Origin: a virus
UHGV virus genome: UHGV-1407733
DNA length: 26,153 bases
Reading direction: 5' to 3' (one strand)
The notes under the pieces were generated by a model that saw only the letters and a list, made by a program, of their open reading frames with translations, did not search any database and was not told the DNA's origin. Below are positions 7,086 through 19,730 of the stretch, one piece after another (positions within the stretch are counted from its first letter, which is position 1; each line of letters begins with the position of its first letter). The position numbers and the translations under genes are program-made.

Positions 7086-7602
7086 ATGAGCATAAGAGAA
7101 CTAAACCTCACCAAGAACAGCACGATTGGCTGAATGGCTGGCTTGAACTGTGGGGCGCATGGTTTATTCAGGCCGCCTGGAAAAGCGCATGAGCAGCGTA
7201 ATAGCTAAGTTCATGGAGAGCGTAGAGCCGGGAAGAGTTATGACAAGGCCAATGTGTAATGATGATGATGGAATGTTGATTTCTCAGGTCGTCGATTCCG
7301 TCATGTACATTGACAAGAAAGCCTTTAGCATCCTCCTCAGCTACTACGCTCATGGTTCATCTAAGCGAGCAATTGCATCCTACTATCACGCGACTGCAAA
7401 GCCACGCAAGATGTGTGGACGTGGTGGCGAGGGATGGAGAAAACCTTCACTGGCAACCTGTAGAAACGAAATTGACGACATCCTGAAAGCGTCATTATTT
7501 GTTTTATACCAGCCGATGCAAAATGCTTTCAAAATGCGTAAACGTGTTGAGAAAGTTAAGCATGTTGCTGTTAAAAGCCTTGACATGCAATTAGCCATTT
7601 AG
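7086..7602 (+). CDS. Q: Late antiterminator Q, 82/P22 gene 23 family; frame interrupted twice
   Basis: WLELWGAW, RPMCNDDDGM and LLSYYAHG motifs typical of the Phage_antitermQ family. N-terminal 40 codons occupy two other frames, with shifts near 7115 and 7190. Confidence 0.75.
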
Positions 7603-7609
7603 CCATAAT
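7580..7609 (+). promoter_or_regulatory. pR'-like late promoter
   Basis: TTGACA (7580-7585), 18-nt spacer, CATAAT (7604-7609), overlapping the Q stop, where lambdoid late promoters sit. Confidence 0.55.
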
Positions 7610-8884: not shown

Positions 8885-9348
8885 ACAGAGTAACCGCGAT
8901 TATCTCCGCTCTGGTTATCTGCATCATCGTCTGCCTGTCATGGGCTGTTAATCATTACCGTGATAACGCCATCGCCTACAAAGAACAGCGAGATAAAAAA
9001 GTCAGTGAGCTGAAGCAGGCGACCGCCACCATTACTGACATGCAGCAGCGCCAGCGTTCTGCTGATGCACTCGATGCTAAATACACGAAGGAGTTAGCTG
9101 ATGCGAAAGCTGAAAATGATGCTCTTCGGCGCAAGCTTGATAATGGTGGTCGGGTGTTCGTCAAAGGAAAATGCCCTGTGCCATCCTCAGACGAAACCTC
9201 CAGCGCCTCCGGCATGGGCAATGATGCCACCGTCGAACTCTCTCCAGTTGCTGGACGAAACGTTCTCGGTATCCGGGACGGAATTATCCGCGACCAAACA
9301 GCACTAAGAACGCTTCAGGAATACATCAGGACGCAATGCCTTCGATGA
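8881..9348 (+). CDS. Rz: Rz inner-membrane spanin subunit
   Basis: N-terminal 90 aa match lambda Rz ([30 protein letters not shown]...); the C-terminal half is divergent but keeps the terminal Cys. Confidence 0.9.
9101..9307 (+). CDS. Rz1: Rz1 outer-membrane lipoprotein spanin subunit, embedded in Rz
   Basis: +1-frame ORF inside Rz with signal peptide, lipobox VVGC and a proline-rich stretch PPAPPAW, as in lambda Rz1. Confidence 0.85.
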
Positions 9349-9521
9349 TAGCGATAATTTTACTCATCATCCTTCACATCTGGCTCTGTAGGCAGGGTGG
9401 TGAACACTTCTGGAGTGAATCCGGATTAAATATCTCATTGCTGATGCTTGATATTGAGCATCTGGCGCGCGGTAAGGGGCTGCGTTGAGATAAGAGCCAG
9501 TCATTACAAATACCAGGATTT

Positions 9522-9547
9522 AGCCTCGCATTTGCGGGGCTTTTTTA
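9522..9547 (+). terminator. Rho-independent terminator after the lysis cassette
   Basis: Hairpin GCCTCGC-ATTT-GCGGGGC (one G-U pair) followed by TTTTTT. Confidence 0.65.
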
Positions 9548-9692
9548 CATCTGCAGTAAACCGCGCATCGCAGCGCGTAACAATCCCGAGTCTTTCAGAA
9601 AGCTGAGCCTGAGAACTGCCGTATATGGTGGCGACCATCTCGGGGCGGCTTTTCTGTGCGAACAGGCTCATCTTTCTAAAAGGTAAGACGCT

Positions 9693-10213
9693 ATGAATAT
9701 CGTTCCACTAAATTACAAAGGCGAACCTATCCGCTTCAATACTGATGGCTGGATTAATGCCACTGATATTGCAAAACGTTTCGGGAAGCGTCTGGATCAC
9801 TGGTTGTCCAACGCTGAAACTCTCGAATACGTTAGAGCTCTGGATGAGGTTTATTCAGGTGAGCCATCGAAAATTCTACATACCGTGATTCCGGGTATGT
9901 AAAAACAAGCAAGGCACGAAAGGACAGGGGCGGCGGAACATGGCTGCATCCAAAGTTATCAGTTGCCTTTGCAAGATGGTGCGATCCGAAATTCTCCGTA
10001 TGGTGCGACCTGCACATTGATAGTCTGCTTCGCGGTGAACTGACTGAGCAGCAGAAATATGAGCAAGCATGTCGCATTCGCGATGACCGGAAATCAAAAG
10101 CCAGCAATGGGGCAAGAGAGATGGCTCGCTGGCGATGGGATAAGCCGGTTATTGAAGCAAATGTCGAGTACTGGCGTGAGCAACTGCAGTTGACTCTCGA
10201 TATCGCGTGCTGA
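9693..10213 (+). CDS. KilA-N domain protein; frame interrupted once
   Basis: N-terminus (FNTDGWINATDIAKRFGKRLDHWL...EYVRAL) and, after a shift near 9900, GTWLHPKLSVAFARWCDPKFSVWCD, the conserved KilA-N core. Confidence 0.6.
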
Positions 10214-10376
10214 TGGCAAACGCAAAACTGCGTTATCGAAAAAAATCAAAGCATTACGAGAACTGAGCAACGGTTATCCATTACAAAGCCTATCTACGGG
10301 TGGGCTTGATAATGGCTTATATCCTACACGGGATAACTTAACTGATATCCCTTTTAACGGATAAACGGAGCCAACA

Positions 10377-10619
10377 ATGGCAGAGATTATTCCCATGACT
10401 GAAGAACAGAAATTCCAGTTAGAGATTTACAAACTGGTCATGAACCAGAACGCAGCCGCAGAAGAAGCATTTCAATTCATTGGCACTGACGAGTTGAAGC
10501 TTGAGCTATTCAAAATTCACTTCCAGTCAGGCGGCGCTAATTCAGATATCACTACCCGCACTATCGAAGCGGTGCGTAAATCGAAGGAAGCGTTATACCT
10601 GTTCACCACCGGAGCATAA
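10377..10619 (+). CDS. Hypothetical protein (80 aa)
   Basis: ORF with upstream GGAG-type RBS, immediately before the small terminase gene; no family recognised. Confidence 0.5.
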   Translation: MAEIIPMTEEQKFQLEIYKLVMNQNAAAEEAFQFIGTDELKLELFKIHFQSGGANSDITTRTIEAVRKSKEALYLFTTGA

Positions 10620-10621
10620 AC

Positions 10622-11063
10622 ATGGCGCGCCCAACAAAGTATCAAGAGGCGTATGCCGAACAGGCACGCAAACTGTGCTTGCTGGGCTACACCGATGCAG
10701 AGCTTGCTGATTTCTTCGAAGTCAGTGAGTCAACTATTAACAAGTGGAAGCTTGATTATCCTGAGTTTTCGGAGTCCATAAAAAAAGGGTAAGGCCGTCG
10801 CTGATGCAGAAGTTAGTGACCGTCTTTATCAACGCGCTATGGGCTTCGTGGCTCCAGACATCGATATTCGTGTTATTGAAAACAGAATTGTCGAAACTCC
10901 GCTTGAGAAGTATTACCCGCCTGATACAACTGCCGCCATCTTCTGGCTTAAGAACCGACAGAAGGATAAATGGCGCGACAAGGTTGATCACGAGCTAACA
11001 GGCAAAGACGGCGGCGCAATTCAGATTGAAACATCACCGATGAGCACTCTGTTCGGAAAATGA
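10622..11063 (+). CDS. Terminase small subunit; frame interrupted in an A7 run
   Basis: N-terminal HTH-like region (MARPTKYQEAYAEQARKLCLLGYTDAELADFF...) runs to a stop just after the A7 run 10780-10786. The continuation KAVADAEVSDRLYQRAMG... is in the next frame (ORF 10839..11063); one A fewer restores a single ORF. Stop overlaps the TerL ATG. Confidence 0.65.
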
Positions 11064-12473
11064 CCTCGATTAATCCTATCTTTGAACCGTTCATTGAGGC
11101 GCATCGCTACAAAGTCGCCAAAGGCGGTCGAGGTAGCGGTAAATCATGGGCAATTGCGAGGCTGCTTGTTGAAGCGGCGCGTCGTCAGCCAGTGCGTATT
11201 CTTTGCGCTCGTGAACTGCAAAACAGTATCAGCGATTCGGTAATCCGGCTGCTTGAAGACACCATCGAGCGTGAAGGATATTCGGCTGAGTTTGAAATTC
11301 AGCGTTCAATGATTCGTCATCTCGGAACGAATGCTGAATTCATGTTCTACGGCATCAAAAACAACCCGACGAAGATTAAATCGCTCGAAGGTATTGATAT
11401 CTGCTGGGTGGAAGAAGCGGAAGCGGTAACGAAGGAATCATGGGATATCCTGATACCAACCATCCGTAAGCCGTTCTCTGAAATATGGGTGAGCTTTAAC
11501 CCGAAGAACATACTCGACGATACCTATCAGCGATTCGTCGTAAATCCTCCTGATGATATTTGCCTGTTGACGGTGAACTACACCGACAACCCGCACTTTC
11601 CTGAAGTTCTCCGTCTGGAGATGGAAGAGTGTAAACGCAGAAATCCGACACTGTATCGTCACATCTGGCTTGGTGAGCCAGTGAGCGCAAGTGATATGGC
11701 AATTATCAAACGTGAATGGCTTGAAGCCGCAACCGATGCGCACAAGAAACTCGGATGGAAAGCGAAAGGCGCTGTTGTCTCTGCGCATGACCCATCAGAT
11801 ACAGGGCCAGATGCTAAAGGTTATGCATCGCGTCACGGTTCGGTAGTTAAGCGCATTGCCGAAGGTCTGCTGATGGACATCAACGAGGGTGCTGACTGGG
11901 CTACTTCGCTGGCGATTGAAGACGGCGCTGACCATTACCTGTGGGATGGTGATGGTGTTGGTGCCGGGCTACGCAGACAGACAACGGAAGCGTTTTCCGG
12001 CAAGAAAATCACCGCCACGATGTTCAAGGCAGCGAATCGCCATTCGATGAAGATGCACCGTATCAACCGGAGCATGGGCTGATGAAGTCGTACAGGGTGA
12101 CAACGTTCGTACTATTGGCGATGTATTCCGCAATAAGCGAGCGCAATTCTATTACGCACTGGCTGACAGGCTGTATCTGACATATCGGGCGGTTGTCCAC
12201 GGTGAGTATGCAGACCCCGACGACATGCTGAGCTTCGACAAAGAAGCGATAGGCGAGAAGATGCTGGAGAAGCTGTTTGCAGAATTGACGCAGATTCAGC
12301 GCAAATTCAATAACAACGGGAAGCTGGAGCTAATGACTAAGGTCGAAATGAAGCAGAAGCTCGGTATTCCATCTCCTAACCTGGCTGATGCGCTGATGAT
12401 GTGTATGCATTGCCCGGAGTCGGCTGCGCAACCCGACTATTCCAGTTACTCAATTCCTTGTGGTGTAGGTTGA
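11060..12473 (+). CDS. Terminase large subunit; frame interrupted near the C-terminus
   Basis: Walker A KGGRGSGKS near the N-terminus and a nuclease-domain-sized C-terminal part. Main ORF ends at 12082 and the conserved C-terminus (ADEVVQGDNVRTIGDVF...SIPCGVG) is in another frame to 12473, with a shift in about 12030-12085. Confidence 0.85.
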
Positions 12474-15677: not shown

Positions 15678-16933
15678 ATGTCTAACCAGTTAACAAAAGA
15701 CCTCGAAATCCTCTTTGAGAGCGTCATTGATAGTTTTGAGGCGTCCAATGTCGTTTCCCGCGAGTGCAGCAAGTTCCGACCGGGCGACATTGAAATGCAG
15801 CGCGCTGGCGACGTTGTTTATCGCCCTCAGGGCTACCACCTGAAAACCGTGAGCGGACTTGATCTGACTTCGGCCACTGCAAACTCACTCGTTCAGCGTC
15901 AGGTGCCTGCTCGCTTCCGCGAGCCAGAGAACGTCATCTACGAACTGGACGCAAAAGAAATGCGCGATCCGTGGCACAAAGAGCAGGCTGGCAAGGCGGC
16001 GGTCGCCAGTTGGCGGCGTGTTGATAACATGATCGTCGATGAGGTGGTCGCTCGCTCCACCAACGTGGTCACCATTAAATCGGCGTCCACCGGTAGCACT
16101 CTCGGCGAAGAACTCTGGAACGCATCGGCTGACGTTGATGCAATGATGCTGTCCATTGGTGTGCCTCAGGGTGGTCAGCGCAAGGCGTTCTACAACCCGT
16201 TCAACTACAAAGACCTGGCTAAGGAGCTTGGCTCTCGCGCATATGCGGTCGGTGCAACTCTGACAGCCTATGAGAAAGCTCAGATTCCACCTGTGGCATC
16301 CTTCGACAGTTTCCGCGTTGATTATGCTGGCGCAATGAAGGCTGGTTCAGCTACCGCTGTAACTCTCGGCGGCGCAGTAAAACACAAAGTTACCGCGATG
16401 GATTCCAACGGCGCGCCTACCGATAACCGCCAGGGTGACATCACCGTATCCACTGCTGGCGTACTGGCTGTCGGCGATGCATTCACTATCGCAGGCGTTA
16501 ACAGTGTCCACATGATCAAGAAGGTGGATACAGGTAAGCCGCAGGTATTCCGCGTCCTGGCAGTAAATGGCACTACCGTTACCATCAGCCCGAAAATTCT
16601 GCCACCAGACAACGCGGATAAGGCGTCTATTCCTTACCAGAACGTTACCGCCAATCCGGTGGCAAACGCGGCGATCACCATCTCAACAAGAAGGCTGCGG
16701 CTTCCAACATCTTCTTCGCTGAGGGTTCTGTTGAGCTGATGTATGGCAAGTTGGCATTCCCTACCGGCCAGGGTCCGCAGGTTATGACCGCAACGACCGA
16801 GCAGGGTGCGACCATCATCATGGCTTACCAATTCGACGCTAAATCTGGCAAAACGTGGACTCGCTTCACCACGCTGGCTGGCGCAAGCGTACTGGTCCCG
16901 GAATTCACCGGCCTGGTATTGGCTAACCAGTAA
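15678..16933 (+). CDS. Major capsid (coat) protein, P22-like; frame interrupted once
   Basis: About 418 codons after scaffold, followed by a strong terminator. The last 65 codons (ORF 16739..16933) are in another frame, with a shift near 16685. Confidence 0.8.
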
Positions 16934-17613: not shown

Positions 17614-19030
17614 ATGCCGATTCAGCAACTTCCGCTTATGAAAGGTGTCGGCAAAGACTTTCGAAACGCCGACTATATCGACTATCTGCCAGTGAATATG
17701 CTGGCTACGCCCAAAGAAATACTCAACAGCAGCGGATATCTTCGCTCATTCCCGGGCATTGCCAAACGCTCTGATGTAAACGGTGTATCGCGCGGAGTTG
17801 AGTACAACATGGCGCAGAATGCTGTTTATCGCGTGTGTGGCGGCAAGCTGTACAAAGGAGAAAGTGAAGTCGGTGATGTTGCCGGAAGTGGTCGTGTATC
17901 AATGGCGCATGGTCGAACATCTCAGGCTGTAGGCGTTAATGGTCAACTGGTTGAGTATCGCTATGATGGCACGGTTAAAACCGTCTCAAACTGGCCTGCA
18001 GACAGCGGATTTACGCAGTATGAGTTAGGTTCAGTCCGCGACATTACACGCTTACGTGGGCGTTATGCGTGGTCAAAAGACGGCACGGATTCATGGTTTA
18101 TTACTGACCTTGAAGACGAATCGCACCCTGACCGATACAGCGCACAATATCGCGCAGAATCGCAGCCTGACGGCATTATCGGCATCGGAACATGGCGAGA
18201 CTTCATTGTCTGCTTTGGTTCATCAACGATTGAATATTTCTCCATGACTGGTGCAACCACTGTTGGTGCCGCTTTGTATGTCGCACAGCCATCGCTGATG
18301 GTGCAGAAAGGTATTGCCGGGACTTACTGCAAAACGCCGTTTGCTGATTCGTATGCGTTCATCAGCAATCCGGCAACAGGCGCGCCTTCTGTATACATCA
18401 TCGGCTCCGGTCAGGTATCACCAATAGCCAGCGCGAGCATTGAGAAAATCCTCCGCTCCTACACTGCTGATGAACTGGCTGATGGCGTGATGGAATCGTT
18501 GCGGTTTGATGCTCATGAGTTGCTGATTATTCACCTGCCGCGCCACGTCCTCGTGTACGACGCATCTTCAAGCGCCAATGTCCGCAATGGTGTGTACTGA
18601 AAACAGGCCTGTATGACGATGTGTACCGCGCTATCGACTTCATTTACGAAGGCAACCAAATTACGTGCGGCGATAAGTTGAATCGATGACAGGGAAATTG
18701 CAGTTCGATATCAGCAGCCAGTACGACAGGCAACAGGAACACCTGCTGTTTACTCCGTTGTTCAAAGCGGATAACGCCAGAGTTTTCGACCTTGAGGTTG
18801 AGTCGTCAACTGGCGTTGCGCAGTATGCTGACCGCCTTTTTCTCTCTGCAACCACTGACGGCATCAATTACGGGCGTGAGCAGATGATTGAGCAGAATGA
18901 ACCGTTCGTTTACGACAAACGTGTTTTGTGGAAGCGAGTAGGGCGCATCAGGAAAAATGTCGGCTTCAAATTGCGCGTTATCACGAAGTCACCTGTCACT
19001 CTGTCTGGTTGCCAGATAAGGATTGAGTAA
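17614..19030 (+). CDS. Head-completion protein (P22 gp10-like); frame interrupted twice
   Basis: About 472 codons in three frames (17614..18600, about 18597..18683, 18686..19030), matching the size of P22 gp10. Confidence 0.7.
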
Positions 19031-19730
19031 TGGCTGATTCGAATCTCAATGAGCCGGTAACAATTCAGGCTACACGACTCGATACATCAATCCTTCCACG
19101 CAATATATTCAGCCAGTCTTACCTGCTGTATGTCATTAATCAGGGGGCTGATGTCGGCGCAATTGCCGGGAAGGCAAATCAGGCTGGTCAGGGCGCTTAC
19201 GATGCCCAGGTAAAAAACGATGAACAGGATGTCGAACTGGCTGATCACGACGCAAGAATCACCGCAAACACAAAAGCGATAAATCTACTTGAGGTCAGGT
19301 TAACAACTGCCGAAGGGAAGATAGTCGTACTGCGTAGCATGTTGATTACTTGCTGGATGAGGTTATCGATATTCAGGCGCATCTGGTCACTGTTGACCAA
19401 AGACTGGATGACGTAGAAAACGATGTCTCTGGCATTAAGAGTGATTACGTATCGAAAACCGTAACCGAATTGCAGTCTCTTGCGTCACCGCTGGATGTAA
19501 AAACATCATATTCAGTTGATGGAATTCAGGTCGTTGGAGCAAGGCAGAGCGGATGGACTGCAGCCACAGGTACGCCACTTCTTGGTTCATTCAACGCTAA
19601 CCAGTCATACACGGTCGGCACTACGTACACACAATCCGAAGTCGCAGCTCTCGCTACAGGTTTGGAGCAGGCGCGGCAGCGTATTCTGGCGCTTGAAACA
19701 GCACTTAGATTACATGGGCTGATTGACTGA
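19030..19730 (+). CDS. Tail needle / plug protein (P22 gp26-like); frame interrupted once
   Basis: About 233 codons with heptad coiled-coil and a C-terminus ending [20 protein letters not shown]. Two ORFs (19030..19416, 19350..19730) overlap around a shift near 19350. Confidence 0.75.

Follow-up and report, generated by a model that had tools for sequence, protein, structure and literature searches.

What stands between the lysis genes and the packaging genes of a P22-like phage, and how much of it is cargo? The question is raised by positions 9693–10619 of the window, a stretch of 26,153 nucleotides (nt) of the virus genome UHGV-1407733, analyzed here as a whole. A KilA-N domain gene and an open reading frame (ORF) of 80 codons, orf80, are found there between the lysis cassette and terS, the gene of the small terminase subunit. 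In a first-pass annotation, made from the sequence alone, both had been taken for accessory cargo, a moron, expressed mainly by Q-antiterminated read-through or from a promoter of its own. The window derives from a temperate Escherichia coli phage or prophage of the P22-like type (Lederbergvirus). It is considered quite probable that the segment represents the usual junction of lysis and packaging genes in such a phage, with a KilA-N cargo slot under late read-through and a leader hairpin, then the conserved orf80, and that the break in the KilA-N frame is an artefact. The gene arrangement is ordinary and already catalogued, and both proteins exist unchanged in public records. A conserved structured leader, predicted to sequester the ribosome-binding site of the KilA-N gene, was missed by the first-pass annotation and is possibly the sole new element at the locus.

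The KilA-N gene and its position

Among public sequences, a prophage of E. coli GN06667 comes closest, with 99.4% identity over 9313–11100 and 97.6% nucleotide identity over the longest aligned stretch. Its annotation runs lysis protein, hypothetical protein, KilA-N domain-containing protein, DUF2560 family protein, hypothetical protein (terS), and terminase large subunit. Because this prophage and the individual gene matches agree, the features first annotated in the window are confirmed where they had been placed. The KilA-N match of the window lies in an ORF of 69 residues at 9693–9902 (Pfam, E = 1.8e-10, 41.1 bits); an intact relative is matched by PF04383 with 85.5 bits against a cut-off of 23.8 (E = 2.8e-24). 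Intact copies of the gene in E212, SPN3UB, and GN06667 comprise 522 bp and encode 173 residues. In the window copy, a CCC run is one C short, at 9883–9884.

A KilA-N gene with a broken frame 3′ of the terminator is therefore present as first annotated; a reading of the break as gene decay is not supported. The frame as given, together with the many other broken genes of the window, would suit a genuine pseudogene in a decaying, defective prophage, which is very improbable. Relative to the GN06667 prophage, with its intact gene and high identity, the window displays 20 isolated indels of 1–2 nt in 15.9 kb, 18 of them in homopolymer runs and 16 of them deletions, and neither large deletions nor insertion sequence elements. 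The affected sites include 4794, 6478, 9883, 10780, 12027, 13249, 16000, 18579, and 21377, and the genes broken are terS, terL (twice), those of the portal (twice), the scaffold, the coat (three times), and gp10, and ejection-protein homologues. Insertion of one C restores a protein of 173 residues with no difference from WP_001028468.1, the GN06667 protein. True decay would add substitutions and would not spare non-homopolymer sites. Since the indels cluster in homopolymers and hit essential genes, and since repair of the frame reproduces an intact homologue exactly, the sequence comparison identifies the break as a homopolymer sequencing or assembly error, and the gene would be intact in reality. 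No biological meaning should be attached to the apparent pseudogene, as the same error pattern breaks most genes of the window.

The C-terminal end of the protein is matched weakly by ORF11CD3 (PF10549; 16.5 bits against a cut-off of 25). PF10549 is listed among the precomputed Pfam hits of nearly all homologues, and PF04383 and PF10549 occur together in more than 500 homologous clusters, whose range extends from Enterobacteria to Pseudomonas. The C-terminal 55 residues or so also match the Rha-like family phrog_518 (E = 2.3e-8). The KilA-N plus ORF11CD3 architecture is reportedly a class defined by Iyer, Koonin and Aravind in 2002. The AlphaFold 2 (AF2) model, with a predicted local distance difference test score (pLDDT) of 87, consists of an N-terminal α/β domain (β-hairpin and helix) followed by a long C-terminal helical hairpin. 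These matches suggest a DNA-binding regulator of the Rha/antirepressor class.

The position of the KilA-N gene appears, from comparison of related loci, to be a real, swappable slot for moron-like cargo. Matches of phage records to 9300–11100 break at the KilA-N gene and never cover more than 73% of the region. The slot holds Rha in phiv205-1, CUS-3, and P22, and KilA-N in E212, SPN3UB, and HK620; the vB_EcoP-720R6 and JEP4 records list a Rha protein under their match to the window locus, and other matching records list HNH endonucleases. Among IMG/VR loci, the genes found directly 3′ of the leader module described below encode KilA-N+ORF11CD3, KilA-N+P63C, Rha, Rha+KilAC, T5orf172/MUG113, HNH endonucleases, and others. 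In one related locus (L078) the slot is empty, the terminator leading directly to terS.

At the 3′ end of the slot, the window contains about 194 nt less between the cargo gene and orf80 than E212, HK620, and P22; this segment holds orf25 in P22. The deletion junction lies at about 10308–10315, with GATAATG/GACAATG microhomology beside it. The antisense pid moron, placed just 5′ of orf80 in P22, is also absent from the window. A hairpin at 10278–10315 (z-score −4.95 on the + strand) adjoins the junction. Its sequence is kept in E212, SPN3UB, and HK620, and it may form the 3′ boundary of the slot or stabilize it. A candidate integration host factor (IHF) site at 10244–10256 on the + strand, between the KilA-N gene and orf80 (WATCARNNNNTTR; AATCAAAGCATTA), was set aside, as the 4 matches in the window are not significant against 2.3 expected.

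The leader hairpin in front of the slot

The terminator is separated from the KilA-N start codon by 145 nt of strongly structured sequence, with a fold z-score of −4.05. This stretch contains a 20-nt inverted repeat (9592–9611 and 9663–9682), and UCUUU at 9591–9595 is predicted to pair with the Shine-Dalgarno sequence AAAGG of the KilA-N gene at 9679–9683. When 13 diverged versions of the leader were folded singly, including those of P22 rha and HK620 hkbK, the same three-tier hairpin was obtained. In diverged versions it is CCUUU at the hairpin base that pairs with the AAAGG Shine-Dalgarno sequence, and the basal helix always takes in AAAGG, 8–12 nt before the start codon.

A covariance model, R1, was built from eight hand-aligned leader sequences. 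It gives the window leader 99.3 bits for the + strand, compared with 35.1 for the − strand, and it recovers diverged leader types, including that of P22 at 39.1 bits. With a sequence-only model from the same seed, the diverged members score 16–27 bits lower and the P22 copy is missed. In the R1-based alignment of 27 distinct sequences, 94.7% of the cells are paired, and compensatory change is seen in 25 of the 28 pairs. The score for covariation reaches 0.427, compared with 0.145 for shuffled alignments (none of 500 reached the observed value) and 0.03–0.10 for slid partners. No family in Rfam matches the element.

The leader module is widespread. It was found by blastn in 153 phage records, 77 of which are Shiga toxin (Stx)-converting phages, and its carriers include phi80, P22, HK620, HK639, and Klebsiella, Enterobacter, and Hafnia phages. 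The leader upstream of phi80 rha is 84% identical and scores 86 bits with R1. A search of IMG/VR with the terminator sequence drew 120 loci, about 42 of which have a Rha or KilA-N gene 140–250 nt downstream, and nearly every leader hit has the small GC hairpin, in the form GCGC-N7-GCGC, in its upstream flank. In the phi80 locus (L128), the annotated rha start at 1632 lies within the 3′ arm of the leader (hairpin 1568–1657), about 36 nt 5′ of the homologous start codon; the annotation may therefore be too long.

The predicted burial of the ribosome-binding site leads us to favour, by a slight measure, the view that the hairpin holds translation of the cargo gene low. It is unlikely that the hairpin has some other role in place of repression, as a site of RNase III processing or mRNA stabilization, as a second terminator or attenuator, or as a DNA-level boundary promoting cassette exchange. 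Such roles are suggested by the long, interrupted helix of about 28 bp, which is of the type cut by RNase III, by the middle stem being followed by UUUUCUGUG, and by the module flanking a slot whose contents are exchanged between phages, as a recombination linker would. They are opposed by the covariation, the G-U pairs, and the 64-bit strand asymmetry, which indicate selection on the + strand RNA and not on duplex DNA. The U-rich run is itself paired and covarying (GAGAA/UUUUC versus GAGGA/UUUCC), which argues against a free terminator tail, and the constant inclusion of AAAGG in the basal helix is also at odds with these roles. RNA processing and repression can coexist.

It is a tentative proposal, somewhat less likely than not, that the terminator, the GC hairpin, and the 93-nt hairpin sequestering the Shine-Dalgarno sequence make up a cis-regulatory RNA cassette that is widespread among lambdoid phages and has not been described before. 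This cassette would gate the translation of junction cargo such as Rha, KilA-N, HNH, T5orf172, and others. It might be opened by RNase III cleavage, by a trans-acting RNA or protein at the conserved CUGUG(C/A)GA loop, or by temperature, and could underlie the IHF-dependent toxicity of rha. The hairpin offers a concrete handle on how lambdoid phages, including the Stx-converting phages in which the element is common, silence regulators of the Rha/KilA-N class. If confirmed, the leader could join RNA family libraries.

Other candidate elements in the leader region were rejected. A coupled upstream ORF of 23 codons (ATG at 9625, TGA overlapping the KilA-N start), considered by analogy with Gifsy-1 orf45, is interrupted by an in-frame TAA in the HK620 version. 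A 55-codon ORF on the − strand (9504–9671), annotated as a hypothetical protein in SPN3UB, has no Pfam or PHROG match, is not kept in frame in HK620, and overlaps both the terminator and the covarying hairpin. Nor is the leader considered homologous to IsrK or C4 (RF01394, RF01695, RF03163), as no hit was found at E ≤ 1 in the window or in 18 related loci. The antisense RNA STnc6030 of BTP1 sits at the tailspike and is unrelated.

Orf80, a conserved late protein

The 80-codon ORF has a good GGAG Shine-Dalgarno sequence, and terS begins 2 nt past its stop codon. Its location before terS had been noted correctly, but it is not the uncharacterized cargo it had been called, being P22 orf80, or hkbM of HK620. 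The domain search that had been proposed for its product returned DUF2560 (PF10834) with 143.7 bits against a cut-off of 25 (E = 2e-42), over profile positions 1–72 of 72; the protein also matches phrog_571. It is 98% identical to P22 Orf80, 99% identical to HK620 HkbM and to the E212 protein, and 100% identical to the phiv205-1 protein. Residue 74 (10596–10598) is a Tyr, where at least 90% of the aligned homologues have an Asp (ALDLF to ALYLF); phiv205-1 has the same variant.

Wherever the locus annotation of a relative was read, the gene stands just 5′ of terS: in P22, HK620, E212, phiv205-1, and the GN06667 prophage. By tblastn it is present in 178 phage records, full length in 150, compared with 158 records for a search with the P22-type coat protein. 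The carriers include P22, L, ST64T, epsilon34, Sf6, HK620, CUS-3-like phages, and Kapi1. A second allele shares about 42% identity, and Klebsiella and Proteus phages carry still more diverged copies. Being near-universal in the P22-like group, orf80 is not a moron. Comparison of P22-like genomes at the junction, also proposed at first, thus found the KilA-N position variable and orf80 constant. The first-pass annotation had named ubiquity of both ORFs as core genes with a known function as the finding that would undo its cargo reading; orf80 is ubiquitous at this position but has no known function.

The DUF2560 family is tiny. Among 1.8 billion representatives, 42 relatives were found at E ≤ 0.001, all of them DUF2560-like, and the same search returned no link to any other family. 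Orf80 is acidic (isoelectric point 4.9), and its AF2 model is a four-helix bundle with a pLDDT of 79.5, for which a Foldseek search of the PDB gave nothing below E = 1.7. No match was obtained in PADLOC or NCBIfam, and no functional study of DUF2560 or Orf80 was found in the literature. The 'ORF80' of Sp5 is an unrelated protein of 2,793 residues that shares the number alone (PMC5155283).

P22 with the orf25–orf80 interval replaced by a kanamycin resistance (KmR) cassette still lyses and lysogenizes (PMC11016777), and an orf25::CamR (chloramphenicol resistance) insertion in P22 serves as a neutral marker in the Casjens laboratory (PMC10883804). orf80 itself is probably dispensable. It is a near-universal, apparently dispensable late gene of the phage group and is better treated as such than as cargo.

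Its location immediately 5′ of terS, whatever TerS type follows, could point to an accessory DNA packaging factor working with the small terminase, as could its remnant near the right end of HK97/HK022-type genome records. Such a role is distinctly unlikely, as the P22 replacement is viable, a small ORF (orf59c in P22, hkbN in HK620) separates orf80 from terS, no relative in sequence or fold has a known function, and the acidic four-helix protein has no DNA-binding motif. In the records of HK97, HK022, HK75, and mEpX1/2, just the first 27–28 codons of orf80 are left, 92–96% identical and near the right end of the genome record; this fragment looks like the remnant of a mosaic boundary.

Expression of the junction and comparison with known systems

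The terminator said to close the lysis cassette is real and conserved. It consists of eight pairs, six of them G-C, a 4-nt loop, and TTTTTT, as expected of an intrinsic terminator, and it is kept in E212, SPN3UB, HK620, P22, and phi80. Its sequence, GCCTCGCAnnnGCGGGGC, recurs in at least 120 IMG/VR contigs. Upstream of the lysis genes, a near-consensus sigma-70 promoter with 11 of 12 consensus matches is probably the late promoter PR′, judged by its sequence, and a gene annotated as a Q-type antiterminator lies upstream in the GN06667 prophage, which is nearly identical. The expression first suggested, Q-antiterminated read-through, fits this layout; the promoter suggested as its alternative was not found.

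The layout is most simply explained if the KilA-N gene and orf80 are transcribed solely by Q-modified polymerase passing the terminator. Late transcripts would begin at PR′, and Q would make the polymerase resistant to the terminator and let it proceed into the KilA-N/ORF11CD3 gene. The product of this gene would belong to the domain-shuffled class that comprises Rha and the antirepressor-like regulators, members of which fill the slot in P22, phi80, and many other lambdoid phages. The 93-nt hairpin, by pairing with the Shine-Dalgarno sequence, would restrain its translation, and a low, late-only output of a potentially harmful regulator would be the likely outcome. Orf80, a conserved and presumably dispensable small acidic late protein, would be translated from the same transcript just ahead of terS.

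How far can the slot be called a moron? A gene present in some relatives and absent or replaced in syntenic others is found in the KilA-N gene and not in orf80. A moron may also be recognized by its own promoter and terminator; here no promoter was found and the hairpin at 10278–10315 has no U-tract. Nor does the composition of the slot region differ from its flanks, the GC content being 0.42–0.51 across 9600–10650 and 0.45–0.54 in the flanks. As neither an own promoter nor a compositional difference was found, the term fits the KilA-N slot loosely. It does not fit orf80 at all. The original moron claim thus stands, loosely, for the slot, with its Rha, KilA-N types, and HNH in relatives, and falls for orf80 with its 178 phage records.

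A stronger version, in which the KilA-N gene, with or without orf80, is an autonomous moron expressed from its own promoter in the prophage and benefits the lysogen, for instance by defence or regulation, is improbable. It draws on the hypervariability of the slot, on the neighbouring P22 pid locus, which lies between orf25 and orf80 and is independently transcribed and expressed outside the lytic programme (PMC3573128; PMC7067206), and on the KilA-N protein weakly matching the candidate system PDC-S22 in PADLOC (E = 3.4e-6). Against it stand the lack of a promoter-like site 3′ of the terminator, the shared orientation of the KilA-N gene and the late operon, the conserved hairpin predicted to enclose the gene's ribosome-binding site, the unremarkable composition, and the near-universality of orf80.

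Several points weigh against the late read-through and repression of a KilA-N regulator as set out above. Promoter prediction in 9548–9692 and 10214–10376, which the first-pass annotation had asked for, returned no promoter-like site, but the sigma-70 consensus scan used is crude and would let weak or non-sigma-70 promoters escape, so that this negative is absence of evidence only. Both the Q read-through and the translational repression by the hairpin are deduced from the sequence. The covariation alignment was fitted to R1 and hence leans towards structure; an independent MAFFT/RNAalifold run gave compensatory change in 9 of 17 predicted pairs, with the outer stem drawn differently. The model of the KilA-N protein has no significant match in the PDB, the best being the APSES domain of Mbp1 (1mb1; E = 0.23, TM-score 0.24–0.39), and a sequence search of the PDB gave no match. 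Finally, the dispensability of orf80 itself depends on the exact end points of the published P22 orf25–orf80 deletion and is no more than probable.

Table 1. Features from the late promoter to the small terminase gene, in window coordinates.
Feature	Position	Strand	Remarks
PR′-like late promoter TTGACA-18-CATAAT, at 3′ end of Q antiterminator gene	7580–7609	+	consensus scan
Holin	8101	+	
Endolysin	8408	+	
Rz with embedded Rz1-like lipoprotein ORF	8881	+	
50-codon ORF with N-terminal hydrophobic helix	9336–9488	+	phrog_11822, E = 4.5e-36
Intrinsic terminator	9522–9547	+	stem 9522–9541, then T6
Small G+C hairpin (CGCGC-ATCGCA-GCGCG)	9562–9577	+	between terminator and leader hairpin
Three-tier leader hairpin	9591–9683	+	about 93 nt; predicted to pair with Shine-Dalgarno sequence of KilA-N gene
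Gene of KilA-N + ORF11CD3-type putative DNA-binding protein	9693–10213	+	173 residues when intact; frame broken
Hairpin without U-tract, 3′ of cargo gene	10278–10315	+	fold energy −22.7 kcal/mol
orf80 (P22 Orf80 / HK620 hkbM; DUF2560)	10377–10619	+	acidic 9-kDa late protein, four-helix model
terS (small terminase subunit)	10622–11063	+	frame broken by extra A in A-run near 10780; terL next

The neighbouring genes are those of a P22-like phage (Table 1). The 50-codon ORF overlaps the end of Rz and stops shortly 5′ of the terminator; it belongs to a conserved family and is labelled hypothetical protein in GN06667 and phiv205-1. The intact relative of TerS, of 146 residues, matches the terminase small subunit family phrog_309 (E = 2.1e-68). 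The coat protein (15678–16739; 18371–19630 in locus L004) is only about 26% identical to that of P22, and its best match in the phage collection reaches only 67% (phage Kapi1); the head is therefore of a divergent P22-like type.

The late gene order of P22 (NC_002371) is Rz/Rz1, rha (orf201), orf25, pid, orf80, orf59c, and gene 3. Position and order are the same as in the window, and a homologous terminator and leader hairpin, the latter recognized by R1 at 39.1 bits, precede the first gene. P22 differs by having Rha where the window has KilA-N, and by three additions that the window lacks: the orf25 segment, orf59c, and the antisense pid moron. In HK620 the order is Rz, hkbK (KilA-N), hkbL, hkbM (DUF2560), hkbN, and gene 3. 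There too, a KilA-N gene lies behind the same terminator and leader and is followed by the 99% identical DUF2560 gene and then by terS. However, hkbK is another KilA-N allele, with about 27–28% identity to an E212-type homologue, and the small ORFs hkbL and hkbN are additional.

The rha genes of phi80 and P22 occupy the same slot after Rz, behind the same terminator and leader hairpin. Rha carries a Phage_pRha N-terminal domain, whereas the window protein carries KilA-N (PF04383). In the phi80 record, rha is credited with 'DNA synthesis inhibition in IHF- hosts', and Henthorn and Friedman reportedly found in 1995 that the rha product inhibits phage growth in IHF-deficient hosts.

Leader RNA structure keeps an antirepressor gene translationally silent in isrK-orf45-anrP of Gifsy-1 and in c4-icd-ant of P1 (PMC4825925). 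The window locus may resemble these systems in outline, as a terminator-proximal structured leader before a gene of antirepressor class whose translation would be off. The Gifsy-1 leader is not homologous: R1 matches nothing in Gifsy-1, and the Gifsy-1 leader matches isrK, C4, and c4-a1b1 of Rfam whereas the window leader matches none of them. Neither a trans-acting RNA nor a coupled upstream ORF was identified at the window locus. The isrK-orf45 leader of anrP, at 34131–34329 (−) of the Gifsy-1 locus (L127), matches all three Rfam families (C4 antisense RNA, c4-a1b1, and isrK), which suggests kinship with the P1/P7-type c4 antisense RNA family.

With the classical lambdoid morons (lambda bor and lom, HK97 gp15, the P22 'ant moron', and P22 pid), the KilA-N gene shares the character of a variable extra gene of the late operon between conserved neighbours. 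It differs from them in having no detected promoter of its own and no compositional difference, in being co-oriented with the late operon, and in apparently depending on that operon for its expression.

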